Below, piece after piece: positions 2,756 through 33,235 of a DNA stretch of 35,187 bases. The translations under genes were made by a program, and so were the position numbers. Source of the stretch: Bacteroidales bacterium (GTDB taxonomy: Bacteria > Bacteroidota > Bacteroidia > Bacteroidales > CAIWKO01). The stretch spans positions 1 to 35,187 of the forward strand of contig DAOORA010000048.1 in assembly GCA_035389045.1 (NCBI GenBank), in the 5' to 3' direction. The notes under the pieces are model-generated. The model was not told the DNA's origin, ran no database searches, and worked only from the letters and a program-made list of their open reading frames with translations. Every line of letters starts with the position of its first letter. Within the stretch, counting starts at the first letter, position 1.

Positions 2756-2766
2756 AACACCGATGT

Positions 2767-3408: not shown

Positions 3409-3422
3409 AATATCAACAATAT

Positions 3423-5890: not shown

Positions 5891-5891
5891 G

Positions 5892-7427: not shown

Positions 7428-7464
7428 ATATCTTTTTATCCCCCTGTTAATTACTAAAAATCAG

Positions 7465-9672
7465 TTATTTGATGTTTTGAAGCAGGATCAACAATACCAT
7501 TGCCAGTGATAACACGAAGGCTGCTATGAATATACTATTGTTCAGCATGAAGTTTTTTTTATGCCGGGCAATAAACAATTTTTTTGCAGCTTCCAGAGAT
7601 TCTTCGGAAAAATTGATGTCTTTATGTTCTTCTTTTACAAAACTTAAAAACGATTGAGCGGCAGGATTTGCAAACATCATGTTTTTGGCTGTATATATGA
7701 ATCCCTCCTTTACCCTGAATGGAAATTTTTCCTGTATGCCTTTTTGTTTCAGATAGGCGTCAAGGGTGCTGACGATTGAATAATGAACATGGCATACTTT
7801 TTCAAATGCAATATATTCAGGGTGAATTTCAGATTCAGCATATTTTGAAAGCACACCGCCGACAAGGTCCGGAAGTTCAGTATTGACAAGCCCCGCCATG
7901 TTAAAAACTTTCAGCAGTGTATTTCTTTCAAAGGTATGATAACGGTCACGAAAAAGGTCTTTGTTTTTTAAATAAAAAATAGTCAGTTCTTCAGCGGACC
8001 TGATGGGTTTATCCGCATTATCAGGATAAGCTCTTTCATTGTTGAACGAATAGAACAACTGTATCATGTACTGATAATTTGGCTGTGCCTTGTTAGGGAA
8101 AATCTGGGCCGGCAGAAAGGTACGGAAGTCAAATTCATCAGCAATATGAATGACGGAGGAAGCGGGATTATAGAGTTTATTTAACAGAGCCGGAATAGTT
8201 TTATTTTCCGGGTTCAGGTAATGCAATACTTTTAAACTGTATTCCAACTGAAAAAAGTATTTTGACAACATATCGTGCCCGGTAAACCGGTATACGCTGT
8301 CAATTTTACCCATATAATTCTTTACAACACCGGCGACATTATCCGTATCGCTGAAAGAATAACTTGTGTTTTCGATTTTCAGCGGGCGCTGAGGCAGCAG
8401 AAACATCGTTACGGCGGCCTGCAGTATAGTTTTTCCGGAAAGCCGGTATATGCTGACCAGTTTTTCAAAACGTTTACGTTCAGGAATACCGATATAGTCG
8501 TCAAGCCAGTCCTTTACCAGCTTGTACACTTCGGGGTCTTCAAAAAAATCCTGAAACCAGGATGACTTCGATTCTATGTAACGGATGAATTCTTCAGCGG
8601 TAGAAATCACAACCGGTCCTATTTCCAGCGGTTTTGTATCAGAAGATTCTTTCATGCGGTATGACACATGGACATCTTCGCCCTTCAGCCATTTTTCCAC
8701 CTCTGTGGCTCCCCAGCGGTTCTGGTGATTGACCAGGGTAAGGCCTTCAATAATTGAGTTCAATCGCTTGAGCGAAGGGTCAAATGTGATGATGGGGACA
8801 AGGTTGTATTGCCGTTCGACGATTTCTTCAAATTTGTCTTTGTCTATTTCACGGTAAAACTTATCCGAAGTCAGCGCTTCCGGGTATACCAGGTGGAGCA
8901 GTACCATGCCGAATGAATAGTAATCATTTTTTTCTGATACTATGCCTCTGGCCTGTTCCGGCGGAAGATAGAATTCCGTTCCTTTGATCGTGGTTGATTT
9001 ACGTAATTCTTTCTCGGATTTCAGATCATAGGCCTTGGCCGAACCATAGTCACCCAGAACAATATCGGTCTGCTCCTTATCTTTATACAGAATATTCCCG
9101 GGTTTCAGGTCGCAGTGGTATATTTTATATTCGTGTAAGCGGGTTATGGCAAGAAACAGTTGAGGAATTATTTCTCCTTCAATAAATCCGGGGGTATACT
9201 TTTTTTTAAAATCCTCCACTTCCAGTATATTGCCTCCTTCGGCAAATTCCGAAATTTCATAGCAATAGTTCCCGCCGTATTTTTCATCCCCTGTGCCATA
9301 ATCAATAAGCCTTAAAATATCCGGGTCGTTAATATTTTTAATCCGTTCAAGCGCCAGGCTGTTGGGCTCTTCAGCCTCATCGTTAAATTCGTAATAAAGT
9401 TTCAATGCATATTTGTTGCCGGAACTATCAGTAATCAAAAAAACATTGGCTTCGCCGGTACCTTCTGAGATAACTCTTTCTACTGTATAATCAACCTGTT
9501 TAAGCCTTATAACTTCACCGGCATGGACACCCTGTGAATTACCGGTCTTTTTGTTTTCATTTGAAGAATATAGGCCGGTCTTTTCCCTCTCTGCATTATT
9601 ATTATAAATACCGGTTTTACTGTTGATATTTTCTTCTGCACCAGTATCAGCATTGTTGTTTTCTTTTTTCAC
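7465..9672 (-). CDS. Hanks-type Ser/Thr protein kinase with a C-terminal TM anchor
   Basis: GTGEANVF, ALKLY, HCDLKPGN, DYG, GTEFYLPPE, DYYSFG and a hydrophobic C-terminus. The start is placed at the in-frame GTG at 9672 (VKKENNN) because the ORF-track start at 9762 overlaps a TATATTTG promoter box. Confidence 0.9.
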   Translation of the reverse strand: MKKENNNADTGAEENINSKTGIYNNNAEREKTGLYSSNENKKTGNSQGVHAGEVIRLKQVDYTVERVISEGTGEANVFLITDSSGNKYALKLYYEFNDEAEEPNSLALERIKNINDPDILRLIDYGTGDEKYGGNYCYEISEFAEGGNILEVEDFKKKYTPGFIEGEIIPQLFLAITRLHEYKIYHCDLKPGNILYKDKEQTDIVLGDYGSAKAYDLKSEKELRKSTTIKGTEFYLPPEQARGIVSEKNDYYSFGMVLLHLVYPEALTSDKFYREIDKDKFEEIVERQYNLVPIITFDPSLKRLNSIIEGLTLVNHQNRWGATEVEKWLKGEDVHVSYRMKESSDTKPLEIGPVVISTAEEFIRYIESKSSWFQDFFEDPEVYKLVKDWLDDYIGIPERKRFEKLVSIYRLSGKTILQAAVTMFLLPQRPLKIENTSYSFSDTDNVAGVVKNYMGKIDSVYRFTGHDMLSKYFFQLEYSLKVLHYLNPENKTIPALLNKLYNPASSVIHIADEFDFRTFLPAQIFPNKAQPNYQYMIQLFYSFNNERAYPDNADKPIRSAEELTIFYLKNKDLFRDRYHTFERNTLLKVFNMAGLVNTELPDLVGGVLSKYAESEIHPEYIAFEKVCHVHYSIVSTLDAYLKQKGIQEKFPFRVKEGFIYTAKNMMFANPAAQSFLSFVKEEHKDINFSEESLEAAKKLFIARHKKNFMLNNSIFIAAFVLSLAMVLLILLQNIK

Positions 9673-9761
9673 CAGATTCTTATTTTGAAATAGTGCTATT
9701 TTCTCAGACCAAATCACACACCTGTGTATTTTTAAGGTATAAGTCGTTTGCTTCCCTGACA

Positions 9762-9769
9762 CAAATATA
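9762..9769 (-). promoter_or_regulatory. Bacteroidota -7 promoter box (TATATTTG) for the kinase operon
   Basis: Matches the TAnnTTTG consensus about 90 nt upstream of the proposed start. Confidence 0.5.
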
Positions 9770-12904: not shown

Positions 12905-14077
12905 ATGAGAAAAGTTATTTCCACCGAGAAAGTTCCTATCAAACTCTGGCTTGACGCACCGGATGAAAACTCGTTGAACCAGGTTAAAAACCTTGCAAAC
13001 CTTCCCTTTGCGTTCAGCCATGTATGCCTGATGCCCGATGCACACGCCGGTTACGGAATGCCGATAGGCGGTGTGCTGGCAGCCGATAACGTCATTGTTC
13101 CCAACGCTGTTGGCGTCGACATCGGCTGCGGGATGTGCGCTGTAAAAACGGATATTAAGGCAGGTTCGTTGCCACAGGCTAAGCTGCGCCATATTCTTGA
13201 TGAGATCAGAAAACTTATCCCGCTGGGATTTGACCACCACAAGGAAGAGCAAAACGAAGAACTGATGCCGCAGAATTTTGATATTGATGAAATGAAAATT
13301 GTGAAACAGGAGTACCTGTCAGCATTAAAACAGTTAGGTACCCTTGGTGGCGGCAATCATTTCATTGAGATACAGAATGACGAGCAGAATTATATCTGGA
13401 TAATGATACATTCAGGCAGCAGGAACATCGGGCTGAAAGTGGCCGAATACTATAATAATAAAGCGAAAAAACTAAATGCCTTATGGCATACCGCTGTCAG
13501 TCCCAAAGCCGATCTGGCATTCCTGCCTTTTGAATCGGACGAAGCGCGAATGTATTATAACGAAATGAAATATTGTGTGGCTTTTGCCTTTGCCAACCGT
13601 AATCTTATGATGGAGCGGATTCAGAGTGTTCTGTCTGATAACGTTTCCCATATTGTATTTGATCCGTTAATAAATATCGCCCATAATTACGCAGCCTGGG
13701 AAGAGCATTTCGGGAAAAAAGTGGTGGTGCACCGCAAAGGAGCCACCTCAGCACGTCAGGGTGAAACAGGTATTATACCCGGCAGCCAGGGCACCCGGTC
13801 ATATATTGTCGTGGGGCTTGGCAACCATGACAGTTTCATGAGCTGTTCTCATGGCGCAGGCAGGATCATGAGCCGTAGCCAGGCCATAAAAAACCTGGAT
13901 CTGGAAGAAGAAATAAGAAAACTTGATAAACAGGGCATCATCCACTCCATCAAAAGCAAAAAAGACCTTGATGAAGCCTCGTCAGCCTATAAAGACATAC
14001 AAACTGTAATTCAGTCTCAGAATGATCTGGTCACCATAAAACATATATTAACCCCGCTGGGGGTAATAAAAGGATAA
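12905..14077 (+). CDS. rtcB: RtcB family RNA ligase (3'-phosphate/5'-OH)
   Basis: MPDAHAGYGMPIG, VGVDIGCGM, GTLGGGNHFIE, HSGSR, HNYA, HRKGAT, PGSQG, SHGAGR and DEA..AYK. Confidence 0.96.
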   Translation: MRKVISTEKVPIKLWLDAPDENSLNQVKNLANLPFAFSHVCLMPDAHAGYGMPIGGVLAADNVIVPNAVGVDIGCGMCAVKTDIKAGSLPQAKLRHILDEIRKLIPLGFDHHKEEQNEELMPQNFDIDEMKIVKQEYLSALKQLGTLGGGNHFIEIQNDEQNYIWIMIHSGSRNIGLKVAEYYNNKAKKLNALWHTAVSPKADLAFLPFESDEARMYYNEMKYCVAFAFANRNLMMERIQSVLSDNVSHIVFDPLINIAHNYAAWEEHFGKKVVVHRKGATSARQGETGIIPGSQGTRSYIVVGLGNHDSFMSCSHGAGRIMSRSQAIKNLDLEEEIRKLDKQGIIHSIKSKKDLDEASSAYKDIQTVIQSQNDLVTIKHILTPLGVIKG

Positions 14078-14098
14078 TTCGTAAACAAATTGATGAAT

Positions 14099-14135
14099 AA
14101 AAAAAAGGCTGTGAAAAGCATCTGATCTCACAGCC
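14099..14135 (-). terminator. Terminator between convergent rtcB and tRNA-Arg
   Basis: GGCTGTGA (14107-14114) / TCACAGCC (14128-14135) with an adjacent A8 run. Confidence 0.65.
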
Positions 14136-14146
14136 CAACATCTAAG

Positions 14147-14219
14147 CGATCCCGGTTGGATTCGAACCAACGACCCACAGCTTAGAAGGCTGTTGCTCTA
14201 TCCCCTGAGCTACGGGACC
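14147..14219 (-). tRNA. tRNA-Arg (TCT); CCA not encoded
   Basis: Reverse complement is GGTCCCGTAGCTCAGGGGATAGAGCAACAGCCTTCTAAGCTGTGGGTCGTTGGTTCGAATCCAACCGGGATCG, with anticodon loop CTTCTAA. Confidence 0.96.
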
Positions 14220-14315
14220 TCAATAAGTTACATCCGTGTGTCGATGATTTGAATAACAATTTGCATAACAGAAAAAAGAACGACATTCAGAAAAAACATT
14301 TCAACAAACGGAGCG

Positions 14316-14348
14316 CAAAGATACAAGATTTTTTCTTATTTGATCAAA
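14316..14348 (-). promoter_or_regulatory. Bacteroidota promoter for tRNA-Arg
   Basis: TTTG-N21-TATCTTTG on the minus strand. Confidence 0.65.
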
Positions 14349-14396
14349 AAGAAAAACGTTTTTTTTACAGACATAAAAACGATGTCCAAAAACAAT

Positions 14397-14479
14397 AAAG
14401 TAAAAGCTGCAACGAAGCTTTGTCAATGCCGGAACTAAAAAAGTAAAAGCTGCGAACAGGCTCTGTCAAACCCGAATTT
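14397..14479. repeat. Imperfect 43-bp tandem repeat
   Basis: AAAGTAAAAGCTGC at 14397 and 14440, each followed by a similar GCT(T/C)TGTCAA..CC.GAA tail. Confidence 0.75.
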
Positions 14480-14572
14480 TATTACAAAAAGGGAACAAGA
14501 AGTGAATACCATGGGAATCAAATGGGCGTGCTGATATGGTGCAAAAATGGTGTCAAGATACCCGGAAAATAA

Positions 14573-14605
14573 TAAACCCCTGATCACAGTGGATGCAGGG
14601 GTTTA
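14573..14605 (-). terminator. Hairpin/terminator after the long DUF6266-like gene
   Basis: Stem TAAACCCCTG / CAGGGGTTTA. Confidence 0.65.
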
Positions 14606-14626
14606 AGTTTTTTGGCCTGTTGTTGT

Positions 14627-16066
14627 CTATTTTACCTTTGATGCCAGTTCGTTACCGGCTTTAAATTTCACCACCTTCCGGGGGCGTTTCTTTTCAACTG
14701 AGAAATCATAATCACCATCAATACCGACCACATCAAACTCATTGATGATGGTATTAGCATCCATAAACTGAATTGTGTAAATCTGATTTCGTTGTAATTT
14801 GGAGCAGAAAAACAGAAAGTCGGAGCTGATAACATGTTCTTTTGTTTCACCTGTGGTACTATTTTTTGATATAACCTTATATGGTACAGCCGCAACCAGG
14901 TCGCCGGGGATGAAGTCTTTCAATTCCCCCCAGATTGCGGTATAAGGATGATGAATTTTCACGCTGTCCGGATGTATCAGCCCGTTTTTGAAGAGTAATT
15001 CGCAATATGAAAGAGTGTCCGGATGGTTAAAGCCAAACCTTGTGGCCGTGGTTTTGTTTTTTCCCATTGCATCGGTGATATAATACAGAATATTGAACGG
15101 TTTGTCCTGATCTCCTTCATTGATGGGAATCATGACTGATTGCCCTGAAGCAGGAAATGTATAATTGCCACCATAGCTGTTACCATTGGACACGAGTATC
15201 TGAGGAATAACATTAATCACATCATCGGGATAAAGTTCAGGGAACTTGGTGTAATCATCAATAGATATTTTTAGGTACCAGCCCGTTGCATCCTGGAAAG
15301 TGGTTGCGTGAATGTTTTCCGGTAGGATGATACGTTTTGAGATTTTGAAATCAAAATACACATCATCAATGTTGGCCGTGAAATACGCACCCACAGAGGG
15401 ACTGTTCATGATGTTTGCCGGAATGTACGGCCTGACATCACGCGAAGGATCATTGATGATGTTATAAAATAACATGCCTTCCGACCAGATATTACTGAAG
15501 TCGTAGTTCATCGGCCAGTCGGGAAGACTCTCTTCATGGATGTAAGTAGAGAAGAAATTTTTAAAAGGGAGTTTGCAGATATTGTCGGTATTGAAGGTCG
15601 TATCAATCGGTTTCCTGCCAACAGCGGTCAGCCTGATGGAATTAGGATCAATATCATCCGAGTTGATTAGTGTGTATTCAATGTAAAATTGATTTATAAA
15701 AGGGTCGTAAGCAGCCCGAAGGATCATCGGGGGCACCATGTTGCTACCGGAAAGGAGCATTTCACTGAAAGTGATGTTGCCGGAATCATCCACCAGGGGA
15801 TAGTTTTTCCTGATGGCTTCGGCCCATGCAGTTGACCTGCCGTTCCGGTTCCTGAAGTTCAGGGGGATTACATTGTCTTTGAATGGCTGCAATGCCAGTG
15901 AAAGGTTTTTGATTTTCTGTCGCTGTAGTTGCTGCGCTATTGTGTTTGGGTTTTTTACCATAGGCTGGTATTTTGAAACAGTGATCAGGGAATTCCATTT
16001 CCGGAATACCACGTTGCCGAGTTTCCCTATCGCATCACCGAGAAAGCCATTTTTTACTGTTGCCAT
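14627..16066 (-). CDS. DUF6266-like protein, long paralogue (479 aa)
   Basis: The N-terminus MATVKNGFLGDAIGKLGNVVF...VKNPNTIAQQLQRQK matches the family pattern and the upstream gene, followed by a beta-rich C-terminal extension. Confidence 0.75.
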   Translation of the reverse strand: MATVKNGFLGDAIGKLGNVVFRKWNSLITVSKYQPMVKNPNTIAQQLQRQKIKNLSLALQPFKDNVIPLNFRNRNGRSTAWAEAIRKNYPLVDDSGNITFSEMLLSGSNMVPPMILRAAYDPFINQFYIEYTLINSDDIDPNSIRLTAVGRKPIDTTFNTDNICKLPFKNFFSTYIHEESLPDWPMNYDFSNIWSEGMLFYNIINDPSRDVRPYIPANIMNSPSVGAYFTANIDDVYFDFKISKRIILPENIHATTFQDATGWYLKISIDDYTKFPELYPDDVINVIPQILVSNGNSYGGNYTFPASGQSVMIPINEGDQDKPFNILYYITDAMGKNKTTATRFGFNHPDTLSYCELLFKNGLIHPDSVKIHHPYTAIWGELKDFIPGDLVAAVPYKVISKNSTTGETKEHVISSDFLFFCSKLQRNQIYTIQFMDANTIINEFDVVGIDGDYDFSVEKKRPRKVVKFKAGNELASKVK

Positions 16067-16111
16067 ATTGCTATATTTTAAAGTTTACAATTAAGATGAA
16101 TTATGTGTTAT

Positions 16112-16147
16112 AAAAAAGGACTTACCGTTCAGGATAAGCCCTTTTTT
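16112..16147. terminator. Bidirectional intrinsic terminator between the two DUF6266-like genes
   Basis: AAAAAAGGACTTA...TAAGCCCTTTTTT. Confidence 0.7.
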
Positions 16148-16166
16148 GATAGGTGTTGGAATTTAA

Positions 16167-16811
16167 CTACACAGTTACAACTACAGTCCCGCTGTAAACA
16201 CTGTCGCAGCATTGGTTGCCTGCAGGATTCACAAAGAAGGAATAAACATGAACGGTGTCACCTCCCCAGGCTGCCGGAACTGTCTGGTCATCTGTGCCAG
16301 TCGCTCTTGTTACGGTAGTGGGGCTGAAAAGCCATTCATCCTTGTCCTCGTTATAGCTTGCAACATATAAAAAGTCGTTGTTAGCTTCATCCAGAGGATC
16401 AACAGGAGGAGTCCATGTTCTCTTTACTTTGAGTGCAAGGTCGTTTCCTGCATGGAATGTTACCGTCTTTGTCAGCGGCCCTTTTGCCACTTTCAGCAAA
16501 GAATAGTCAATGACATAATTTCCCGGGGTTCCGGTGATGGCCGTTTTGATGTTGTTTTTGATGAAAACATTGAAGGCTGACATATCAGTTGTCATGTTCT
16601 GAAATGAAACTTTGAGCATGGTCAGCAATCTGCGGCCTTCGGCTACCATCATTGAAAATTTGTTGCGCTGGTTCACCTGGTCGGGTGTTCTGGGGTTCTT
16701 CACCTGGATGGGTTTGGTGCGCATGGTGTTTTTCGAAAACTGTTTCGAGAAAACTGCAGTACCGAATTTCTGTTTGGTTCTGCCGGTGATAGGATTTTGG
16801 ACTATAGCCAT
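16167..16811 (-). CDS. DUF6266-like protein, short paralogue (214 aa)
   Basis: MAIVQNPITGRTKQKFGTAVF...VKNPRTPDQVNQRNKF, SAFNVFIKNN, IDYSLLKVAKG.L, and C-terminal HVYSFF...DSVYSG. Confidence 0.8.
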   Translation of the reverse strand: MAIVQNPITGRTKQKFGTAVFSKQFSKNTMRTKPIQVKNPRTPDQVNQRNKFSMMVAEGRRLLTMLKVSFQNMTTDMSAFNVFIKNNIKTAITGTPGNYVIDYSLLKVAKGPLTKTVTFHAGNDLALKVKRTWTPPVDPLDEANNDFLYVASYNEDKDEWLFSPTTVTRATGTDDQTVPAAWGGDTVHVYSFFVNPAGNQCCDSVYSGTVVVTV

Positions 16812-16932
16812 AATATTAAATTTAGGGGGTTAATAATCGGATTTAGGGTTATTTTTTTAATTTTATAAGCGGCCTTGATACGGAGTTGAAGCGGACTTAA
16901 TACAGTGATCATTTTTATAAATTTATTCTATG

Positions 16933-16940
16933 CAAAAATA
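16933..16940 (-). promoter_or_regulatory. Possible -7 box (TATTTTTG) for the DUF6266-like genes
   Basis: TAnnTTTG match about 120 nt upstream of the ATG; no clear -33 box. Confidence 0.4.
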
Positions 16941-17018
16941 ACGCTAAAAATCCTGAAAAGGTTGGTGGATATGGCTTCCATGTATAATGTTTCAACCGAT
17001 TGCTTTGTTCTGCAAAAT

Positions 17019-17044
17019 AAAAAAGGGAGTAGTGAAACTCCCTT
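17019..17044 (-). terminator. Terminator after the J-domain gene
   Basis: AAGGGAGT-agtgaa-ACTCCCTT with an adjacent A-run. Confidence 0.7.
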
Positions 17045-17050
17045 GTGACT

Positions 17051-17524
17051 TTATGTCAATATGAAACTGTCTTTTCGGTTTTCGATTATATCACTGCCAT
17101 ATTTGCAGCGGATGTATTCGATGGTTTTGGGCTTCTTGTTGGCACTTTTGTAGTCTGGTGGGCGGTAATACCACATAGTCTTTTTTGGTGCGAAATAGAA
17201 GCCCGTTTGTTTTAATTGTGCCCTGTGGGGATAGGTGTTGCCACTCAACCAGATCCAGTTCCCGATTAACTCAATGATGATGCCATCCAGTCCGATAATC
17301 TGGCTGATGATCTCCGGGTACCGGATGAATTCTTCCTGGTCCTGCTCTGACTTTTCCGCAAAGGAAAAGAACGGGTTTTTCATGATGTTTTCATACTGGA
17401 GGTTGATCTCCTGCATGGTTGCCGTATCGCCTCCCCTGTCGGGATGGTGCTGCAGGGCTAATTCTTTGTATCTGCGCTTCACTTCTTCGAGTGTGCAACA
17501 GGTTGAAAAGTACTGTGTTTTCAT
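17051..17524 (-). CDS. Small J-domain (DnaJ-like) protein of mobile-element type
   Basis: LEEVKRRYKELALQHHPDRGGD...MQEIN..YE (HPD motif). Aromatic C-terminal domain GNWIWLSGNTYPHRAQLKQTGFYF..KK.MWY. Confidence 0.85.
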   Translation of the reverse strand: MKTQYFSTCCTLEEVKRRYKELALQHHPDRGGDTATMQEINLQYENIMKNPFFSFAEKSEQDQEEFIRYPEIISQIIGLDGIIIELIGNWIWLSGNTYPHRAQLKQTGFYFAPKKTMWYYRPPDYKSANKKPKTIEYIRCKYGSDIIENRKDSFILT

Positions 17525-18622
17525 GGGTTTTGTTTATAAATTTTGATAACTTTTTCTGAGATTTGCGGCTCGCTGTGCGCTCGCCGCCACATAAAAAAAA
17601 TATATCATTAATGAAACCTTAGGCAGCAAGAAAGCGCGTGTGCAGGCTGAATTTCAAGGTTTTTGCAAAAAAAATACTACCTCCTGCCACTATAAAAAAG
17701 TCCTATAAATGCAGGAGTGTGGAGATTTTTTTTGCAAAACCCGTAGGGCTTGACCTTGCAAGAGCGGTGGCAGCTTAACTTTGCATAAGGTTTTATTAAT
17801 GAACTTCAAAGAAAATCTCTGTGGCATTAGGGTGTATTTTTTCTTTCTCTTCAAGGGTGGTTGGGTGGGGGTTGGTGGTAGCGTTGGCGGTTTTGGCGTG
17901 GTTTTTTGTTGTGTGTCAGGAAAAATAATATAGCTGTCGGAGGTACGGAGCAGCTTTATTATGTGCGGCTGCAAAAGTATAGCGAATGAACTGAGAGGAG
18001 CGTAACCGAGATCAGGTAGCGCAGCGGACTGTCGAGGTGGAGCGGAACGAAGTGAAGGAGCTATGCTTGCAGCAGCATGGCTTTACAAAAACCATGACAA
18101 AACCATTGGGTAAGGGCGCTTGGGATAAAAAAATTACGAAGTACATTATTGGTGCGATGGCAGAAAACTGATGAGGGCTGGCGTAGTTTTGTGCACGTGT
18201 TGCGGGAGCATCGGTGTGCTGAGGGCATAAAATCAGCGGGCGGCATTGGTTGCCACAAAGGAATAAGCTGCAATACCGCCGAAAGGTTTTGTTGGCTTGT
18301 GGGCAAATGCAATTATGAGTGAAATGAACGAAATCGAAATGAAATGTAGTGTTGCTGGAACGAAGTGGAAGCGTTAACGGAATGGAATGGAGATGTAGTG
18401 AATGAACTGATAATGCCATTACGGCGGTGAGTGATGATTTATTATTTTGAGGTTGGATTTATTGCTGCTCATGTATTTGTGTCCGGGAAGGGCTGCACTG
18501 CTGATTTTATTTGGGCGGGGAAACCGATGCTATTGGGTTTGGCAAAAACTATGACAGCCCGAAAATTACCATATCAAAGGGAAGTGTGGGTGGGCTTTTG
18601 TGCAGTGGCGGAGAGTGCGGCT

Positions 18623-18650
18623 ATTTTACATAATAACCATTATAACTGAC
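18623..18650 (-). other. dif/Xer-like recombination site 1
   Basis: Minus strand GTCAGTTATAA-TGGTTA-TTATGTAAAAT has an 11-6-11 layout. The right arm differs by one base from the canonical XerD arm TTATGTTAAAT. Confidence 0.7.
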
Positions 18651-18722
18651 AGGCAGCAACTCTGTCCAGCCTACCCAGCGGCGAAGCTATCGTTTACCTT
18701 ACGACCTGCTGCTTTCGCCTGC

Positions 18723-18750
18723 CTGTTTTATAATGCTTATTATGTTAGAA
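18723..18750 (+). other. dif/Xer-like recombination site 2, inverted relative to site 1
   Basis: CTGTTTTATAA-TGCTTA-TTATGTTAGAA has an 11-6-11 layout with a XerD-like right arm. Confidence 0.65.
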
Positions 18751-19261
18751 TAGCATACGATACTAAATCTTCTAAAATAGCGAATGGCAGACGGGCAAAA
18801 TACGTGGGTGCAAAGAGCATTTTGTCCCGGCTGCCTTAAAAAAATAAATTCATTAATAAAACCTAATTTTGACGACATTCCGGAATGCAAATCTTAGCCA
18901 GCGGAGAATAAATAAAAACGCTGCTCACTTTTTGCCTTTACTTTAAGAATTGTGAAAGGGAACAGGTTTAATTTGAGGAATTAAAGAGCTAAAAAGAGAA
19001 AACTAAGGTTATTTCACAGAAAATAAAAAATATAAGATATTATAAATCAACGCTTAAACCATTTATTTTTAGTTTTTCATTCAATTTTAACTTAAAAAAG
19101 GGGGTTATTTCACGGATTTTCAGAAATAAGGGAATACCTACGAAACTTGCGGCTGCCAATGGGCATAACCTTTTTCTCACTTATAAGTAAATTGAGTTAT
19201 TAGAAAAAAAACGTTAATAAAGTTAAATTATGTTAATAAATACAGCATTTTGTTAATAAAA

Positions 19262-19294
19262 TTTGCTTGTTCTGTCATAATTGTTGTATATTTG
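19262..19294 (+). promoter_or_regulatory. Consensus Bacteroidota promoter facing the 3' end of the DUF3800 operon
   Basis: TTTG (19262-19265)-N21-TATATTTG (19287-19294). Confidence 0.7.
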
Positions 19295-19297
19295 CAC

Positions 19298-19366
19298 TCA
19301 AGTTCATTCTTCATTCGAAGAAAGGAAATCGAAAAACGCAAAGCCTAGATGTTTTGCGTTTTTTGC
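19298..19366 (+). ncRNA. Candidate small RNA of about 65-70 nt
   Basis: It lies between the promoter and a terminator and has no ORF. It contains hairpin TTCTTC-ATTC-GAAGAA, then AAAAACGCAAAGC/GTTTTGCGTTTTT with a T-run. Confidence 0.45.
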
Positions 19367-19368
19367 TT

Positions 19369-19875
19369 TTAAAGAATCTCATTTAGTCTGCGATTATATT
19401 TTTTCATGATCTTATCACGCTTCGCATCCTTGCCTTTCAAATAATAAGCAGTTATCAAGTAGTATGCTGATCTGTCACGCAAAGGCTCAAAAATAATTAC
19501 ATACTTCTCGTCTTTATCATATAAATAAGTCCTTAAACCATCAGGTTCCTTAATTGAAAAAAGATACATATTAGAAGGCTTTCTTTCTTCAATATGGTAC
19601 TTAACCCAGTGCAATCTAACTGAACGATCAAGATCAAATTCCCTTTTTCTGGTGGCTTTATCAATAATAACAGTTGTAAGATGGGTAAATAGTGTTTCCA
19701 TTTTAATAACACCATCAGCAGGAGTGGGAGTAATTTGTTTGCCCTTAAACCTAAAATTCTCATTATTCGCTATATCTCTATTAAATATACCCAATAAAGA
19801 TTGTTTGCGCTGGAAGTCATTATATGTATTTAATTCTAATAAGCTATTATATGTTTTTAATAAATTTAATGGCAT
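19369..19875 (-). CDS. Hypothetical basic protein, possibly a BECR/RelE-like RNase fold
   Basis: Starts 2 nt after the DUF3800 stop. H-x-R-rich core (FTHL...R..D.DRSVRLHW) and a C-terminal YVIIFE...YYLITAYY strand pattern. Confidence 0.7.
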   Translation of the reverse strand: MPLNLLKTYNSLLELNTYNDFQRKQSLLGIFNRDIANNENFRFKGKQITPTPADGVIKMETLFTHLTTVIIDKATRKREFDLDRSVRLHWVKYHIEERKPSNMYLFSIKEPDGLRTYLYDKDEKYVIIFEPLRDRSAYYLITAYYLKGKDAKRDKIMKKYNRRLNEIL

Positions 19876-19877
19876 AG

Positions 19878-20561
19878 CTATCTTAATTCAATAAAAAATA
19901 AATTCAATTTCTTTGAGTGATTTGTGCATGTTAACGATTCCTTACTATGATTTTTTATTTTATCAATAATCTGTATTTTAGCGATATTTTGCTTTTTATC
20001 ATCGTTATGAAAGTATGAAATCGCACCCATCAGAAAATCTGCTAATTGCATTAGTAAACTTTCATAAGAATGGATATTCTGAACATTCCTAAACACTCCA
20101 AATTTTGTATTTAATATATCTTTTAATTTGTTAACTTTTCTTGCACTCAAAGTGTCTTTTATGTCCAGATAGACGTTGTAATTGTATAAGGTATTTATGT
20201 TATGATTAAGTAAATAATAATACATGGTATAATAAAAGTCATCGTAGGTTTTGTTAAAAGCGCCATTATTTATTGTTGATTTATTAATGCCAACAGCTCT
20301 GAATTTAAGATCTGTGGCAAAAAAATAATCAACAAGATCAATATAGAAACGAATTTTAGAAGATGACACGTACGACCATTTAATTTCAGCATAAAAATTA
20401 TGCTTCTTCTTTAAATTCTTAATATTTTCAGTATGTAACCGAACCTGGTTATATGCCGAACTAACTGATCCCAAAAACATAAAAGCCTTATGATCATTTT
20501 CGATATGACAACTTTCATCGCAATATATGTTGAATGTTTTATTTGCTGTTGAATTATTCAT
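19878..20561 (-). CDS. DUF3800 family protein (RNase H-like acidic motifs)
   Basis: NIYCDES, EIKW, VYLD and QLADFLMGA. Confidence 0.85.
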   Translation of the reverse strand: MNNSTANKTFNIYCDESCHIENDHKAFMFLGSVSSAYNQVRLHTENIKNLKKKHNFYAEIKWSYVSSSKIRFYIDLVDYFFATDLKFRAVGINKSTINNGAFNKTYDDFYYTMYYYLLNHNINTLYNYNVYLDIKDTLSARKVNKLKDILNTKFGVFRNVQNIHSYESLLMQLADFLMGAISYFHNDDKKQNIAKIQIIDKIKNHSKESLTCTNHSKKLNLFFIELR

Positions 20562-20642
20562 ATAAGCAATTTATTTTTGTGAGTTAAAAAGAAGATTCAT
20601 GTGGGGGAATTAATCAAATAATAAAACAATAAATTTTTTAAT

Positions 20643-22064
20643 CTAAATAACTCTGATTTCAGGCATTTCATCTGAAAATTCTTCATCTATCAAGTGTATC
20701 TGGTTTCGGACAATCTGACGTTTTTCAAGCGCCGGCTTTAAGCAGAATTCATTAAAATCTTCTTTGCTGATGTCGGAGGAACTGTTTACATTCGGAAACA
20801 ACAGTTTTAAGTAAGCCGTCGCAATTCTTTTTACTGCGGTAGTGTCCCGAGTGTCGGCCTTTGCCGGAACATCAATCAAATCATTGACAATAGTAGAATA
20901 AACCGGATTATCACGAAGTTCATGCATTATTTCTGAAAAATACTCAACATTTAATGTCCATCCGTTAATTTTTAGGTTTTCATTAATACGAGGTAATTTC
21001 CAACCTTCAATGAAGCCATGAAAACGATCAAGGAGGGCTGATTCCCGGAATGTTTCTGGCAATTCCACAAAATATTTGGATTTGACGGGTTTTTTATCAC
21101 TGGTTAAAGTAATATTACCCATAATAATAAGACCTGCCTGAGAAATAAGCTTCACATTGGCAACTGTTGTGTAACCGAATTCAAGATAACTTTTAAGGGC
21201 TGCCTGTATTTCTGTTGCATCGGAAAAAGTTATTGTCTGAATTTCATCCATGGTAACAAAGTCATATAGAGTGATTGCGCCCATCGACTTTTTTGTCATG
21301 TCATAAAACAGTTTTGCCCGCGTGACCTTGCCACCGCTAATCATCCAACCATATTTACTAAGGTTCCCGAAAATATAAGATTTGCCTGTACCCTTAGGTG
21401 CTAGTTCAATTAAATTCAGCCGGGGCTCAATAAATATCAGAATTCTGCTCAGGAACATAAGTTTCTGAGATAGAGAATCAAAACCATCAGGATTATATTC
21501 CATCGATCGAATAAGAAGATCAATCCATTCTATGATGTTAAAGTCTTTTCGAGCATTTCTGAAATAATCCAAATCAACTTTATATGGTTTAAAAGCCTTA
21601 TAGTTTACCAACTCAACATAACCTTTCTCATGATCATCGGGTGGCTGATAAACCAAAGTAACAACGCCCCAAATTTCACCATCCTTTAATTCTTTATTCT
21701 TTTTGGCTACATGTTCCGGAATTCTCCCTTCATTTGACTTAATGCCTAAATCTGGAATAGAAAAAAGCATTCGGTCGTTTTTCAAATCTGTTTCAACGAT
21801 AAATCTCGTCAGAACAACAACCTGTTCTCTATAAGTCCGCAGGCGATTTTTCAAATCATTATCCTTACCAGGAATATGGTTTTCTAAAAATTTCAGTACA
21901 CCATCCCGATCAAGATTACCGTATGAATCTGTGTATTTTTTAACCAGGTAATCTTTAATAAAAGATGGCAGATTCTTACCAACAAAAACACTATAATTCT
22001 GAGGTGTTTTTATTACTGATTCATCAGGAAATGCCTGTTTTATTTTTTCGTCTAATGTGCTCAA
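20643..22064 (-). CDS. brxL: BREX BrxL AAA+ ATPase without an evident Lon protease domain
   Basis: EWIDLLIRSM, NLIELAPKGTGKS, DEIQ, ESALLDRFHGFIEGW and RD..AVKR. Its start overlaps the pglZ stop. Confidence 0.88.
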   Translation of the reverse strand: MSTLDEKIKQAFPDESVIKTPQNYSVFVGKNLPSFIKDYLVKKYTDSYGNLDRDGVLKFLENHIPGKDNDLKNRLRTYREQVVVLTRFIVETDLKNDRMLFSIPDLGIKSNEGRIPEHVAKKNKELKDGEIWGVVTLVYQPPDDHEKGYVELVNYKAFKPYKVDLDYFRNARKDFNIIEWIDLLIRSMEYNPDGFDSLSQKLMFLSRILIFIEPRLNLIELAPKGTGKSYIFGNLSKYGWMISGGKVTRAKLFYDMTKKSMGAITLYDFVTMDEIQTITFSDATEIQAALKSYLEFGYTTVANVKLISQAGLIIMGNITLTSDKKPVKSKYFVELPETFRESALLDRFHGFIEGWKLPRINENLKINGWTLNVEYFSEIMHELRDNPVYSTIVNDLIDVPAKADTRDTTAVKRIATAYLKLLFPNVNSSSDISKEDFNEFCLKPALEKRQIVRNQIHLIDEEFSDEMPEIRVI

Positions 22065-24406
22065 AATAAGTCCTCCTCAATTAAACCGGATTTGATATTT
22101 ATAGTGAAAGATTTTTCAAAATTATCAACAAGAACTGCCACAGACAACTCTCCCGATAATGATTTATCCATGATAATTTCCCACTTATGGGTGTTATTAT
22201 TAAAATTAAGTTTTTGTTTTTTGCCTGAAAACTTCAAATAAGCATTCTGAGGCTTCGGCATTATAGTAAATGAAAGCAAGGGTTCTTTTTTCGAAATCTC
22301 AGTTTTTTCGATGGTAACTGAATAATCAATTTGGTTGGTGTCTTTTTTGTTGGAAATAATAAGTAAGGGAACCAGCACTTCCTCAGGGGTACATCCACCA
22401 TGAGCCTCCCTTATTGGCTTTTTACCTAAAGAATTGTGTTTTAGCGCAATTAAATATTCCTTTTGGTCAATATCAGATTTGTGGTAAATGTAATCAGAAT
22501 CCTGAGTATGTTCATTACCCTTTACCTCTATGAAACGCCCCTCATGACTATCTTCCTTGCCATATTTCTTAGAAGAGGCAAGTCTTGATAAAGCAGTTAA
22601 TCCGTGGTCTGAAACCAAAGCATATGTTTGATTTGAATCGAGAATAAGGCATGAATTCAATATGCGCTTTATCTCTTCCATTTCTTTAATTAACAGATCA
22701 GGATAAGAATATGTATTATTATGAATGAAAGAATCAAAATCCTGTATGTATTTAGCATCTGAAAAACGATTATGCTCAGTACTTGTCGGTAAATTAGCAA
22801 CGCCAACAAGTTTTTTAACAATCCTCAAATCTTTATTAGCCTGAGTTAGGTAATTTTCGATAAATGACACCCATTCGATTCCCAGGGCATCAATCCATAT
22901 CACCTTATCAACCTTGTTTGTATGCAATATGCTGTGTAACGATTCAAAGCTATGATACCAGTTATAAAACGAATCACTATTACCATTAAATTCTAATAAT
23001 ATTTTGTTCAGATTATCTGAAACCTTATCGCTCAGTTTAGATTTTTTATATTCAGCCAAATATTCATAAATCCATTCTTGGTTTTTACTAGTATTATCAA
23101 ATATGCTGGATGAAATATAATTAGCAATATCAGGGAATCTTTGGGATAACAATTCGTAATCAGATATTTCATTACTTACAAATAATGCAAAAATGAATTC
23201 TTTTTCGAACTGAAAACATCCTGTACAAACCATTAAGGCAAGGTTTTTATCGGGCAGTTCTTTAATTTTGTTCTTTAACTCGTTTATTACATCATCACTT
23301 AAGTTAGCAGATTTAAGGCATTCGTATTGTTTAATTAAATTTAATCGCTCACTTATAAACGACTCTTTCGTATCAAGTGAAAAGATGGCCAAAAACAAAT
23401 ACTTTAATAGAGTGTGATCTGTGTAGTCGGGTAAAGATATAAGAACCTTTGAAAGATATGTCTGTTTTAAAGAATCATTAGACACAACAAAATGCTGTAA
23501 TAACCATTTATCAAATTCATTGTCTGACTTTAACCAAAAATCAAGAAAATTATTCTGTGTTATAGAAACAACATTAAAATGTTTTTTTACACAATCAGTA
23601 AAGGTCGTAAAATCTTTATTTATTAGTGATGATAGCTTTTCCCAATGATTATTATCCTTAATAATAAAAGGAACAGGAATTACTTTATTTAAAACCTTTT
23701 CAATTAGGTTTTTAATGTTTTCAAATTTCTCAATAAAAAAAATTGAATCCGGTAAGGTATTATTATAAAAAATATTCAGCGGCTTTGAATAACAAATCAC
23801 ATCACAGGGGCTCTTTTTCTTCCAAAATTTTAACCATTCTTCTGTGTTGGGGATTGTTTCAATATCCATTAATTTCCCTGCTATTTTATCAGCTGATAAA
23901 AAAACTTTTATTGAATTGGGAGTTTCATTAGAAATCTTCCAAAAAGGGGCAGATTCTTCACTACGGGTAAAATCCTGAAAAAAATCTTTTTCAAACCTTT
24001 GTTCAATACCAATCAATGGTAAATAAATACGGCGTGAAATATCTGAATTTTCAATCAAAAGCACTTGATGAAAGAAATTGCTTAATTCTGGAGATGAATA
24101 GAACCGTACCAATTCGGAAAAAGGTACTATGGCCGTATCAACATTAATATTTTTTACAATATTTATAAGGGAATCTTTGGTTATCCATCCATCAGGGTGA
24201 GGTAACTCTCTTTCAATATGACATATATTAATTCCAATTTTATCCAGCCTTTCAATAAGCGCTCTGAAGGTCTCGAATCTTTGCAAAAAAATTAATCTTA
24301 CCGGATAGCGATTTGATAATATATTGCGAGTATGCTTGTCTGATTCAATTTCAGAAACTAAATCATCAAGGTTACTAAACTCTTTTATTTTATCGACTAA
24401 TTTCAT
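22061..24406 (-). CDS. pglZ: BREX type 4 PglZ alkaline-phosphatase-fold protein
   Basis: WIDALGIEW, LPTST, SDHG, HEGR and HGGCTPEEVLVP. Confidence 0.88.
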   Translation of the reverse strand: MKLVDKIKEFSNLDDLVSEIESDKHTRNILSNRYPVRLIFLQRFETFRALIERLDKIGINICHIERELPHPDGWITKDSLINIVKNINVDTAIVPFSELVRFYSSPELSNFFHQVLLIENSDISRRIYLPLIGIEQRFEKDFFQDFTRSEESAPFWKISNETPNSIKVFLSADKIAGKLMDIETIPNTEEWLKFWKKKSPCDVICYSKPLNIFYNNTLPDSIFFIEKFENIKNLIEKVLNKVIPVPFIIKDNNHWEKLSSLINKDFTTFTDCVKKHFNVVSITQNNFLDFWLKSDNEFDKWLLQHFVVSNDSLKQTYLSKVLISLPDYTDHTLLKYLFLAIFSLDTKESFISERLNLIKQYECLKSANLSDDVINELKNKIKELPDKNLALMVCTGCFQFEKEFIFALFVSNEISDYELLSQRFPDIANYISSSIFDNTSKNQEWIYEYLAEYKKSKLSDKVSDNLNKILLEFNGNSDSFYNWYHSFESLHSILHTNKVDKVIWIDALGIEWVSFIENYLTQANKDLRIVKKLVGVANLPTSTEHNRFSDAKYIQDFDSFIHNNTYSYPDLLIKEMEEIKRILNSCLILDSNQTYALVSDHGLTALSRLASSKKYGKEDSHEGRFIEVKGNEHTQDSDYIYHKSDIDQKEYLIALKHNSLGKKPIREAHGGCTPEEVLVPLLIISNKKDTNQIDYSVTIEKTEISKKEPLLSFTIMPKPQNAYLKFSGKKQKLNFNNNTHKWEIIMDKSLSGELSVAVLVDNFEKSFTINIKSGLIEEDLF

Positions 24407-24414
24407 AAAAGTCG

Positions 24415-27400: not shown

Positions 27401-27798
27401 ATCTGCAGCGTAAAAGTTCTGCTGTTAGAAATACCTCCCAGTCCTTTTAAAACCACCGGGAAAAGTTTGTTTTTATTTCTATAATTAATGAGCTTGGCTC
27501 TCAAATTAATATCATCAATGTTTTCATGAATATATGGCTTTACTTCATCAAAATCATCAAAAAGAAGATGCTTAATTACAGAAGCAGCGTGACTCTTACC
27601 TGTGCCAAAAGTACCCTGAATCCAGATTGACTTTCTTTGACTTGGCTCGTTAGTGTCTATTGCTGAAAGCGTTTTTTTTAATACCTCATAAAACTGATCA
27701 TTGGGAATAAACTGTTTCCAATAATTTATTGTTTCATTTTCAATGTTAAATACAGGATGAAAATATTCCTGTAACTCAATAATTTTTGAATATTTCAT
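24415..27798 (-). CDS. brxC: BREX BrxC-like P-loop ATPase
   Basis: WIQGTFGTGKSH, IFWDEF, FPIHPY and RSIF.FL. The start is moved to the ATG at 27798 (MKYSKII), just after the brxP stop. Confidence 0.85.
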   Translation of the reverse strand: MKYSKIIELQEYFHPVFNIENETINYWKQFIPNDQFYEVLKKTLSAIDTNEPSQRKSIWIQGTFGTGKSHAASVIKHLLFDDFDEVKPYIHENIDDINLRAKLINYRNKNKLFPVVLKGLGGISNSRTFTLQIEKAIRTSPGFNDLGIVTTSDFERMIEQVNSPLIDWDLLIKKHEELSIYVSNKNDILKKLNSYDIDFFNVIESTLSKEGVHFSHEDITKWLVEINKELIAQNKAKGIMIFWDEFTSVMDSISSGIINQIQNIAELSEKNNIFLYLISHRTPHQHSIPKEDLSRMNDRFHIISYRMEPITTYHIMGASIKKIDTVKWRKFQSEVFDNSSLWDELISKLTNNNGSATKTRIKDLFPIHPYSAYLSTFIARNLGSTNRSIFGFLYDKELGFLNFLEKELTGSPMLTPDYLWDFFVEAFENDQEGRFNQVLDKYRLNIQRVEEKGENYTKVFKGILLLNILFKVIDVSGEEASPITPSSENILSLFIGSGFENELEDILFFIDENGIVTKTPAGDYLIEFYSLPVREIEQAKEDIRNQFKDLISVLKYAKVDGDIEKFIFKENIYRESEIALFSANIENEHVLRNRLSKAFNKPYSLKCAVFLSNGDYDQLTALPKLKDFALDDDFQNVIFTIIEEPFSEKNYEKFIDFMARKQVSDNHSYEEQSTNFENYAKGQVEEWFTRIRTRYVQVIFRDKDEKHLANQVGGFINTLICPIIFSKGIDNIPELFRNANIWKFQAAIKSAEIFINADDRTELEEKTSSGPNTYLKSIVKDKEGEYIISDNLLIKSECDPNHTLKIIQDEIDEKMSKLKLRPVFNIGDELRFLTEAPYGVYTNMPNMALMGYAMRKYVGELYVADVGRPIANDEMRDLIGHIFSYWQDNRNQNKLNVRFGSKEERELKKILFELFDLKDFNSITDTRWAIVNYVKTTAKFPLWALKYNSVDNNISIAIDELLKLLYNATNEIDVKLISSVLNKIKDARVDLKLILKPENFRSGFLSFLQSVDDDIVFSEDNFDEINEYLISNMQEEIGLWKEDGVKLKVYQWDKRNKSQPSPPNDTPSGSGPDIPPVIPPNGPANGGKKTIDKVRSFNRGENELKNRIIQFLEENPQFLSLIDKYFN

Positions 27799-27805
27799 GA
27801 CAACT

Positions 27806-30932: not shown

Positions 30933-30950
30933 GGTTTTCAGTTAATTTTA

Positions 30951-31024: not shown

Positions 31025-31038
31025 ATGATTTATAATTT

Positions 31039-33231: not shown

Positions 33232-33235
33232 TGCT

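Follow-up and report, generated by a model that had tools for sequence, protein, structure and literature searches.

Two kinds of described system come closest to the locus analysed here. GOLLD and ROOL are described as lying near tRNAs, in prophages and also outside obvious prophages (PMC5737381), and RNA-only cages have been reported for both (10.1101/2024.12.08.627333). CTXphi-type IMEXs carry no recombinase of their own and imitate the host dif, in the account given in PMC3442271, with inverted dif-like sites ~80-90 nt apart that form one stem with a mismatched centre.

The locus lies in a window of 35,187 nt (the whole stretch of DNA that was analysed) from Bacteroidales bacterium GCA_035389045.1, contig DAOORA010000048.1 (C48), and has likenesses to both. 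As in the portrayal of GOLLD and ROOL in PMC5737381, it holds a candidate for a large multi-helix RNA, in which many helices covary and insertions vary, near tRNA genes and phage-type genes and also outside obvious prophages; its size is ~1.05 kb, against a ROOL average of 581 nt from the same source. Unlike GOLLD and ROOL, the candidate has no Rfam match and occurs in Bacteroidales, and it is set apart by a tight link to a single superfamily of proteins, seen in 18 of 24 loci, and by a helix that imitates dif. Like CTXphi-type IMEXs, the locus lacks its own recombinase and has a putative attachment site that imitates the host dif through inverted, paired sites; unlike them, it lies away from the chromosomal dif, has neither Rep nor filamentous-phage genes, has its insertion junction just outside the dif-like site, and is known from assembled contigs.

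A mobile three-gene cassette in Bacteroidales

We compared positions 13000-21000 of the window with the fetched loci by blastn and found that 14404-18846 aligns to G010:C7 (L029, 5795-10245) over 4478 columns at 84.7% identity, and that the sequences on either side are unrelated. The block is nearly identical to the unit, 14397-18840, delimited in the original prediction. It spans ~4.4 kb and contains three ORFs, all on the minus strand, and searches of these with Pfam, NCBIfam and PHROGs revealed no recombinase, relaxase or Rep. The same compact gene set recurs across several genomes, and one genome, G010, carries three copies of the cassette. DNA matches to its non-coding region were found in 17 of 41 relatives (own genome counted) and in 12 genomes from a sample of 401 across the order; neither 50,697 phage records nor IMG/VR contained a match. 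The cassette is thus a discrete unit, mobile between Bacteroidales genomes and found in unrelated contexts, in agreement with the earlier description of a compact mobile module without a recombinase. More generally, the observations behind the original prediction were confirmed, whereas its interpretation is only partly supported.

A conserved fold on the plus strand

Beyond the J gene lies a 1.25-kb non-coding region that is conserved and folded, and within which no conserved ORF was found. Its parts are:

17590-17810, plus strand: Block A, a long conserved hairpin with outer arms at 17605-17625 and 17782-17802
17790-18846, plus strand: predicted large structured RNA, its start inferred from the promoter box and its end from the terminal hairpin
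18235-18445, plus strand: Block B, the inner domain with the strongest conservation, folded as an irregular stem whose internal loops are rich in purines (GAA-type)
18786-18835, plus strand: terminal hairpin, in which the copies differ by compensatory changes

Folded as a single sequence, the plus strand of 17850-18846 reached -315.5 kcal/mol (z = -2.81, 0 of 20 shuffles equally stable), and the minus strand of the same stretch -222.5 kcal/mol (z = -3.52). Comparative support for the fold is far stronger than that from single-sequence folding. A consensus of 8 sequences contained 228 pairs in 37 helices and was 91.3% paired, compared with 38-50% in slid controls, and included 66 compensatory pairs, compared with 33 ± 3.6 in shuffles. 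The reverse complement folded worse (-211 vs -274 kcal/mol, 185 vs 228 pairs, 50 vs 67 compensatory). Among the 1688 cells of consensus pairs, 181 were G.U (11%) and 24 were A.C, an excess which indicates that it is the plus strand that folds; some G.U positions are invariant. The consensus and the strand tests thus agree on the large plus-strand self-complementary fold that had been claimed for this region.

Variable hairpin insertions sit between the conserved blocks, and Block B itself carries a variable apical insertion. Block A (19 sequences, 37 pairs, 96.7% paired, 13 compensatory) and Block B (16 sequences, 20 pairs, 96.1% paired, 15 compensatory) were each matched by 0 of 500 shuffles. 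Within Block A, the 3′ arm holds a TA.CTTTG box at 17776-17783, of the Bacteroidetes -7 type, which is invariant in all 19 rows. The 5′ arm and inner hairpin of Block A also covary; since they lie upstream of this sole conserved promoter, an RNA starting from ~17790 would exclude them.

The folded region (~1.05-1.1 kb) is most likely a large new structured RNA, divergent from the J gene and the two paralogues. RNA fits better than folded DNA on the strength of the ~1-kb structure, the 11% G.U, the purine-rich loops and the variable hairpin insertions. Rfam returned no family match: in the whole window two tRNAs alone reach gathering scores, and at E up to 5 the 7 matches within 14200-19400 all fall far under their gathering thresholds. 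The terminal hairpin also occurs on its own in other genomes, where it follows tRNA genes.

Two DUF6266 paralogues and a probable J-domain protein

The three genes and their flanking signals are:

14566-14612, minus strand: hairpin after the P479 stop codon (inverted repeat I23), a probable terminator of the P214-P479 unit
14627-16066, minus strand: P479, 479 aa, a DUF6266-like basic N-domain followed by three Ig/FN3-like sandwiches
16167-16811, minus strand: P214, 214 aa, a DUF6266 basic N-terminal arm and helical domain, then one FN3
16933-16940: promoter-like box of P214 (motif scan)
17023-17044, minus strand: hairpin resembling an intrinsic terminator, which follows the J gene and has a T-run
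17051-17524, minus strand: J157, 157 aa, a small, probable J-domain protein of phage type with HPD in its translation

P214 is a full-length DUF6266 protein (PF19781; 130.7 bits vs a cut-off of 23.4, E 6.3e-38, profile positions 3-198 of 198) with 318 relatives at E <= 0.001. P479, with 22 relatives, has no Pfam match; it aligns to DUF6266 over residues 1-53 only (hhalign, probability 83%, E 9e-6), so that its membership is limited to the N-domain, the one part that this long second paralogue shares with the family. AF2 models (pLDDT 82.8 for P214 and 80.0 for P479) place the basic N-domain of P479 at residues 1-91, followed by sandwiches recognised in Foldseek and VIA searches, and the FN3 match of P214 has Z 8.6 and rmsd 2.5 over 94 aligned residues. 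The first 60 residues have a pI of 11.9 in P214 (12 K/R) and of 10.8 in P479. As modelled, then, the two are paralogues in which a conserved, very basic DUF6266 N-domain is joined to one or three FN3/Ig-like domains, the N-domains being of low model confidence.

The original prediction had cast the pair as DNA-coating proteins and proposed AlphaFold modelling with a Foldseek comparison against coat proteins. The outcome speaks against that role: the models give a helical N-domain and FN3/Ig sandwiches, and neither they nor the Foldseek and VIA searches matched a known coat fold. The structure models likewise contain no recognised RNA-binding fold.

A J-domain is recognised by a profile match together with the HPD tripeptide. 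J157 scored 26.6 bits against DnaJ (PF00226), slightly short of the cut-off of 27.8, over residues 10-45, matched phrog_15863 at E 9.3e-38, and had as Atlas neighbours DnaJ-domain clusters scoring 0.96-0.97, mostly of tailed-phage origin. J157 is probably a J-protein, and of a phage type, its Hsp70 role being a proposal. Elsewhere DUF6266 has DUF6943 neighbours, whereas in the window the partner is the J-protein; neither family name turned up in the literature searched.

Among the 24 loci fetched solely by non-coding DNA similarity, 18 carry a DUF6266-superfamily ORF; of the six others, two run off the end of their contig and three are hits 39-48 nt long. One linked sub-type has two paralogues of 231/234 aa and no J gene. 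From the other direction, the covariance model of Block A gave only 2 weak matches in a phylum-wide sample of 29 DUF6266 loci, which may mean that the RNA is restricted to a subset of the family or that the model is too narrow. The non-coding region is conserved beyond the proteins, with 70-80% nucleotide identity where the proteins drop under the Pfam threshold.

Assembled metatranscriptome contigs, which give no strand, ends or level and could derive from DNA, were found over P214 in all 4 runs. One assembled contig of 202 nt, which may include DNA, covers 18249-18450 and with it Block B in 1 run, whereas contigs were lacking over most of the non-coding region.

A hairpin that imitates dif and insertion beside tRNA genes

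The right-hand part of the non-coding region and the left end of the cassette carry the following features:

18620-18753, plus strand: 3′ domain, which folds back into a hairpin with a dif-imitating stem (XerC-like arm, 6-nt centre, XerD-like arm)
18623-18650: dif-like site 1 (inverted)
18723-18750: dif-like site 2
14146-14219, minus strand: tRNA-Arg(tct) (ARAGORN, Rfam), 185 nt beyond the left cassette end and on the same strand as the genes
14316-14323: promoter-like TAnnTTTG (motif scan)
14394-14431 and 14437-14474, plus strand: left-end direct repeats, 38 nt each, 79% identical

In 18 of 41 relatives, we could identify the host dif as a motif present in one copy. Compared with it, site 1 agrees at 7/11 XerC-arm and 10/11 XerD-arm positions and site 2 at 9/11 and 9/11, and the cassette region matches a true dif locus at 27 of 32 nt (blastn). 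The dif-core pattern occurs just 3 times in the 4.46-Mb genome, one of them inside the cassette. The inverted pair 18628-18645 / 18728-18745 comprises 18 nt, 94% complementary, with 82 nt spacing; both sites pair as a stem with a mismatched centre, which is kept in 12 loci and has a covarying inner helix. The inverted dif-like pair that had been reported here thus resembles the host dif and forms a conserved fold-back hairpin. In the 3′ domain, the stem keeps its sequence as well as its pairing, and this sequence reproduces the host dif. It is not evident why an RNA should need such a sequence-conserved copy, which counts against a reading in terms of RNA only.

The genome's own chromosomal dif lies on another contig (C56:9337-9358), and no DUF6266-type ORF was present at any of 6 dif loci inspected (±1.5 kb). 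Instead, 7 of 14 module loci adjoin tRNA genes. In the window, tRNA-Arg(tct) and the spacer are common only to G002 and G016, both with the same cassette. At the G010:C11 copy, an exact 8-nt repeat occurs at both junctions, and a comparison by eye of its tRNA-Arg(acg) site across three genomes found three states: the hairpin by itself, a mini form, and the cassette in full. The junction repeat falls outside the central region of dif-like site 2, and in the window the 8-nt core is no longer intact at the right-hand end, where its copy has diverged.

The left-edge tandem repeat of the original prediction was recovered as the two 38-nt copies, kept in L029 and L031, although it is absent from the Tandem Repeats Finder list. 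The motif TGCAACGA at 14408 lies in the first repeat, in the loop of a small hairpin. Judged from sequence, the left repeats and TGCAACGA are candidate arm-type sites and a candidate recombination core.

Discussion

The explanation that we favour, and to which we give about an even chance of being right as a whole, is a horizontally mobile, phage-related cassette whose structured-RNA gene and protein genes are inherited together. The RNA would start just past the invariant -7 box and end at the terminal hairpin. The basic N-domains would bind it to form a ribonucleoprotein, with P214 as the abundant subunit and P479 as a long, rarer one, and J157 would bring host Hsp70 for assembly. The cassette would insert site-specifically beside tRNA genes by means of a recombinase supplied in trans, at an attachment region made up of the dif-imitating hairpin, the adjacent short core and the left-end repeats; the presence of that hairpin makes host XerCD a candidate recombinase.

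A possible though unlikely alternative is a cassette with an ssDNA stage, in which the plus strand is transferred or packaged and its fold-back presents an attP to host XerCD in the manner of CTXphi, which uses such inverted sites folded in (+) ssDNA according to PMC3442271. The 17605-17802 hairpin would then supply a double-stranded promoter driving early transcription of J from an ssDNA template, replication and transfer would occur in trans, and the long fold may also be RNA. Two facts unexplained by RNA alone favour this idea: the dif mimic, with arms matching the host site and a mismatched-centre stem in 12 loci, and the covarying hairpin upstream of the promoter. In addition, the plus strand both folds and is the template of all three genes, no recombinase is encoded, presence and absence states occur at one tRNA site, and a -7-like box on the folded strand points out of the base of Block A towards J, so that a Frpo-like hairpin promoter facing the J gene is geometrically possible. 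Against it, the cassette lies away from the chromosomal dif and adjoins tRNA genes, the junction repeat is outside the centre of site 2, and ~1 kb of helices with 11% G.U and invariant G.U would be unexpected for DNA. The proteins are unlike known ssDNA coat proteins, Rep, relaxase and phage morphogenesis genes are absent, and the phage records and IMG/VR contain no match. The primase at 31-33 kb, once suggested as the replication helper, is inconstant as a neighbour between loci. Of the Xer-exploiting attP originally proposed, the dif imitation and the fold-back stand, while the position at tRNA genes, away from the chromosomal dif, does not fit.

A rather unlikely combination of the two gives the plus strand two forms, an ornate RNA coated or scaffolded by DUF6266 proteins and a folded ssDNA with the promoter and the dif hairpin. 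The cassette would then be a minimal virus-like element, inserting beside tRNA genes without a recombinase of known type, Rep or capsid gene.

Quite improbably, the cassette is a piece of a decayed prophage or tailocin, with DUF6266 proteins as Ig-domain fibre or decoration proteins and the non-coding DNA as a regulatory or attachment region that yields no autonomous molecule. The FN3/Ig domains do match phage tail and host-specificity proteins (E ~1e-4), the J-protein family is a PHROG family, and canonical DUF6266 genes elsewhere are followed by a holin (Phage_holin_4_1), by an endolysin-like domain (phrog_873, E 3.5e-37) or M23 peptidase, and by a lipoprotein. However, capsid, terminase, portal and tail genes are absent near every inspected locus, the compact content is the same in several genomes, and the non-coding region outconserves the proteins, with pairing-preserving substitutions over ~1 kb.

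An abortive-infection-type anti-phage system, with infection sensed by the structured RNA together with a protein pair linked to a chaperone, is very improbable: PDC-M04 and BREX type 4 lie within the window, MmeI-type, N6/N4 and C5 methylases, YobI ATPase and HipA at other loci, and lysis genes beside some relatives, but PADLOC models match none of the three proteins, nor DUF6943, other copies sit among housekeeping genes, and mobile DNA and defence islands share hot spots anyway.

To our knowledge, very few bacterial non-coding RNAs this large and complex are known. Each has opened structural and functional work, and the mobile cassette favoured here would add a candidate that, unlike GOLLD and ROOL, has testable protein partners, as well as a first functional handle for DUF6266 and DUF6943. 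A conserved imitation of dif outside the terminus in Bacteroidales makes the use of Xer by small mobile DNA directly testable, and a by-product of the analysis is the probable dif sequence of the order.

A compact cassette of three genes and no recombinase

The cassette occupies positions 14404-18846 of the window (about 4.4 kb) and lies between tRNA-Arg(tct) and a defence island. Its genes and left neighbour are as follows:

14146-14219, minus strand: tRNA-Arg(tct), left neighbour of the cassette (ARAGORN)
14627-16066, minus strand: P479, ORF
16167-16811, minus strand: P214, ORF, DUF6266 (E 6.3e-38)
17051-17524, minus strand: J157, ORF, DnaJ at 26.6 bits (cut-off 27.8), phrog_15863 (E 9.3e-38)

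In agreement with the original prediction, this is a compact unit of three co-oriented ORFs in which searches of Pfam, NCBIfam and PHROGs returned no recombinase, relaxase or Rep; the same databases held no family match for P479. Comparison between copies revealed no conserved ORF from 17525 to approximately 18846, and hidden coding in this non-coding region was ruled out, as its long ORFs are not alike between copies.

The related genome G010 contains three cassette copies. One (contig C7) aligned to window 14404-18846 at 84.7% identity over 4478 columns, with homology ending on both sides (blastn), and neighbours TPR proteins and an ABC/TonB cluster; another (contig C11) lies among a PEMT-like gene, a tRNA and a Cus-type efflux operon. 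On contig C41 of this genome, a DUF4405 membrane-protein gene (4344-4847 of the fetched locus, L030) sits within the non-coding region and the J gene is absent. The assemblies surveyed are drafts, several loci are cut by contig ends, and related sequences do not count as independent. The non-coding region had DNA matches in 17 of 41 relatives (own genome counted) and in 12 of the 401 genomes sampled for the order; DUF6266 was found in 11 of the 41 relatives and in 24 of 401 genomes taken from across the phylum. A set of 50,697 phage records yielded no match to P214 (tblastn) or to the non-coding region (blastn), and an IMG/VR scan based on only two peptide patterns gave no confirmed match with a DUF6266 alignment.

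The window is one entire contig (C48), the remainder of which carries:

480-9762: kinase cluster, encoding a Ser/Thr kinase, a 511-aa protein without assignment, a ClpB-like AAA ATPase, a radical-SAM/4Fe-4S protein, an FHA protein with zinc ribbon, a PP2C phosphatase and a membrane protein
19369-20561: PDC-M04 A/B (168-aa protein and DUF3800)
20643-30352: BREX type 4 (BrxL, PglZ_4, BrxC-like protein, PAPS-reductase protein)
30555-35185: DUF6965, a DUF3987/BT4734-type primase and a 436-aa repeat-rich ORF without family match

The defence island (19369-30352) has a GC content of 0.32 relative to 0.41 for the genome. The gene set at 30555-35185 is typical cargo of Bacteroidales integrative elements, and no integrase was found in it before the contig end.

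The non-coding region forms a large covarying fold

Folded as a single sequence, the + strand of 17850-18846 reached −315.5 kcal/mol (z −2.81, 0 of 20 shuffles as stable) and the minus strand −222.5 kcal/mol (z −3.52). Block A (17581-17815, 19 loci) forms a long hairpin of 37 pairs that is 96.7% paired, with both sides changed in 13 pairs (0 of 500 shuffles as good; slid controls 40-63% paired). Block B (18235-18445, 16 sequences) contains 20 pairs, 96.1% paired and 15 of them compensatory (0 of 500 shuffles), with symmetric purine-rich loops between its stems and variable-length insertions at its tip. The consensus for 17770-18850 (eight sequences) comprised 228 pairs in 37 helices, 91.3% paired, with 66 compensatory pairs compared to 33 ± 3.6 in shuffles and with slid controls at 38-50% paired; structures were predicted on the same alignments in which pairs were then counted, and the slid and shuffled controls argue against an artefact.

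The + strand is the folded strand, because G.U cells far outnumber A.C cells in this consensus (181 and 24 of 1688) and the reverse complement folds worse than the + alignment (−211 versus −274 kcal/mol, 185 versus 228 pairs, 50 versus 67 compensatory; 32 G.U cells in the reverse-complement alignment). The large + strand self-complementary region first noticed is thus upheld by covariation as well as by strand asymmetry in G.U pairing and fold energy. As to the anticipated association with DUF6266, HMMs found a DUF6266-superfamily ORF in 18 of 24 loci that had been retrieved solely because their DNA resembles the non-coding region. In 29 DUF6266 loci sampled at phylum level, a Block A covariance model produced no more than 2 hits, both weak; the fold may be limited to part of the family, or the model may be too narrow. 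The folded region matched no Rfam family, and we found no literature on a large noncoding RNA with covariation in Bacteroidales.

The fold is very probably a functional RNA

We consider it very probable that the folded region functions as RNA, as suggested by its size and density of conserved helices, its G.U pairs (11%, several invariant in 8 of 8 rows), the GAA-type internal loops and variable-length hairpin insertions separating conserved blocks in the 8-sequence alignment, and a closing hairpin (18786-18835) with compensatory changes. A TA.CTTTG box, invariant in all 19 Block A rows and facing the conserved region, points the same way; it conforms to TAnnTTTG, the −7 consensus of Bacteroidetes. 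In activated-sludge metatranscriptomes, contigs covered P214 in four of four runs (four studies), and in one of these runs a 202-nt contig lay exactly over Block B with 4 differences; such assembled contigs are no proof of transcription, and uncovered stretches of the cassette are uninformative either way. An RNA alone fits less well with the 5' arm and inner hairpin of Block A, which covary though upstream of the promoter box, and with the 3' domain stem, which is kept in sequence as well as in pairing.

An invertible promoter (17605/17782/18846 motif) was rejected, as no copy carried a flipped segment and the two-way match reflects self-complementarity; the third copy of the 17605/17782 motif, at 18846, is missing from other cassette loci. 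The start of Block A is repeated just beyond the right boundary as a 28-nt copy (82%; 18837-18864); other cassette copies lack it, and it may be left over from an earlier tandem element.

The 3' domain mimics a probable host dif

Three occurrences of the motif ATAA-N6-TTATGT[AT]AA were found in the 4.46-Mb genome, among them cassette site 1 and position 9338 of contig C56. The latter (C56:9337-9358; loci L098-L103) is a 28-nt site and probably the chromosomal dif of this Bacteroidales group, because it is single-copy, nearly invariant in 18 of 41 relatives (reversed control almost absent) and has conserved flanks on the XerC side. Measured against this probable dif, each arm of site 2 (18723-18750) agrees at 9 of 11 positions, and the arms of the inverted site 1 (18623-18650) at 7 and 10 of 11. 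Both sites pair as one stem with a mismatched centre. The 3' domain has an outer helix that is conserved in sequence and carries the XerD-like arm; beyond a bubble comes a covarying inner helix, closed by an apex of ~40-170 nt. This dif-like fold-back recurs in 12 non-coding regions, among them a distant DUF6266/DUF6943 locus. The inverted dif-like pair proposed at the outset is real. A solo copy of the 3' domain in the same genome (C103:1602-1851, L003) has a 110-nt apex insertion and is preceded by two small ORFs, one with a zinc ribbon.

CTXphi attP(+) has the same fold-back design of inverted sites, as described in PMC3442271. The likeness lies in the paired dif-like sites; unlike CTXphi, the cassette is located away from dif. 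Integration at dif, as the CTXphi parallel had implied, was not seen: a DUF6266-type ORF was present at 0 of 6 dif loci, and a tRNA gene adjoins 7 of 14 module loci. That an ssDNA, Xer-exploiting stage exists in addition to the RNA strikes us as possible, if somewhat doubtful. It is the sole account of the dif-imitating fold-back, and of a hairpin promoter box that would be aimed at the J gene when + strand DNA is folded; against it stand the absence of dif integration and of any Rep or coat-like gene in the cassette.

Insertion site and ends

At the tRNA-Arg(acg) site, three genomes present three states (junctions read by eye):

G007:C1: terminator and terminal hairpin only
G002:C47: terminator, terminal hairpin and a 150-nt remnant including site 2
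G010:C11: full cassette

The empty-site comparison originally proposed gave these three occupancy states and no clean empty site for the window's own insertion, which G002 and G016 share; in other genomes homology ends at the tRNA. Within the genus, conservation does not extend to the right flank of the G010:C11 copy, and comparison of a tRNA-Lys site gave a patchwork of small conserved pieces with no precise junction.

Both junctions of the G010:C11 copy carry the 8-nt repeat TGCAACGA without mismatch, on the right directly after the XerD-like arm of site 2 and on the left in the loop of a small hairpin where tandem repeats begin; in the window the right copy has diverged. The sequence TGCAACGAAG has 7 genome copies. 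Three of them are in the window, at 12699 (−), 14408 (+) and 35103 (−), where each occupies the loop of a hairpin and the stems differ; two of these bracket nearly all of the island between RtcB and the end of the contig. As regards an IS200/IS605-like reading, no TnpA is present and the left end has only a weak hairpin. The right end of the cassette overlaps a small element widespread downstream of tRNA genes, because the terminal hairpin is also found alone, as are parts of the 3' domain, 40-220 nt downstream of tRNA genes and on the tRNA strand.

The cassette proteins and their relatives

P214 (AF2 pLDDT 82.8) is poorly modelled in its basic arm, which is followed by a small helical domain and, at the C-terminus, an FN3 sandwich (best solved-structure match: Z 8.6, rmsd 2.5, 94 residues aligned); the model of P479 (pLDDT 80.0) shows three Ig/FN3-like domains. 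The first 60 residues have a pI of 11.9 in P214 and 10.8 in P479. Of the two DUF6266 paralogues first proposed, P214 is a full match, while the likeness of P479 is limited to its N-domain (hhalign 83%, 53 residues). A DNA-coating role for them finds no backing in the folds: against a viral structure library, P214 matched FN3 domains of tail and host-specificity proteins (E ~1e-4). J157 resembles J-proteins of 150-160 aa, mostly from tailed phages; its gene has its own terminator, and P214 its own promoter-like box.

A second module type encodes two tandem proteins of 231 and 234 aa with the same N-terminal motif (hhalign 92%, 19%) and no J gene. Canonical DUF6266 genes are paired with DUF6943, and genes for a holin, an endolysin-like or M23 protein and a lipoprotein frequently come next; we found no literature naming either family. 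Another genome of the order, G025, carries 13 DUF6266 genes over many contigs; downstream of one of them lie genes for a putative holin, an M23 peptidase and a lipoprotein.

The best-supported reading is that the cassette is mobile and phage-related, that it combines a large structured RNA of a new kind with proteins that would bind this RNA, and that it draws on a recombinase in trans. We infer that the DUF6266 proteins may bind the large RNA. Insertion would be carried out by the recombinase supplied in trans, for which host XerCD would be a candidate because of the dif mimic.
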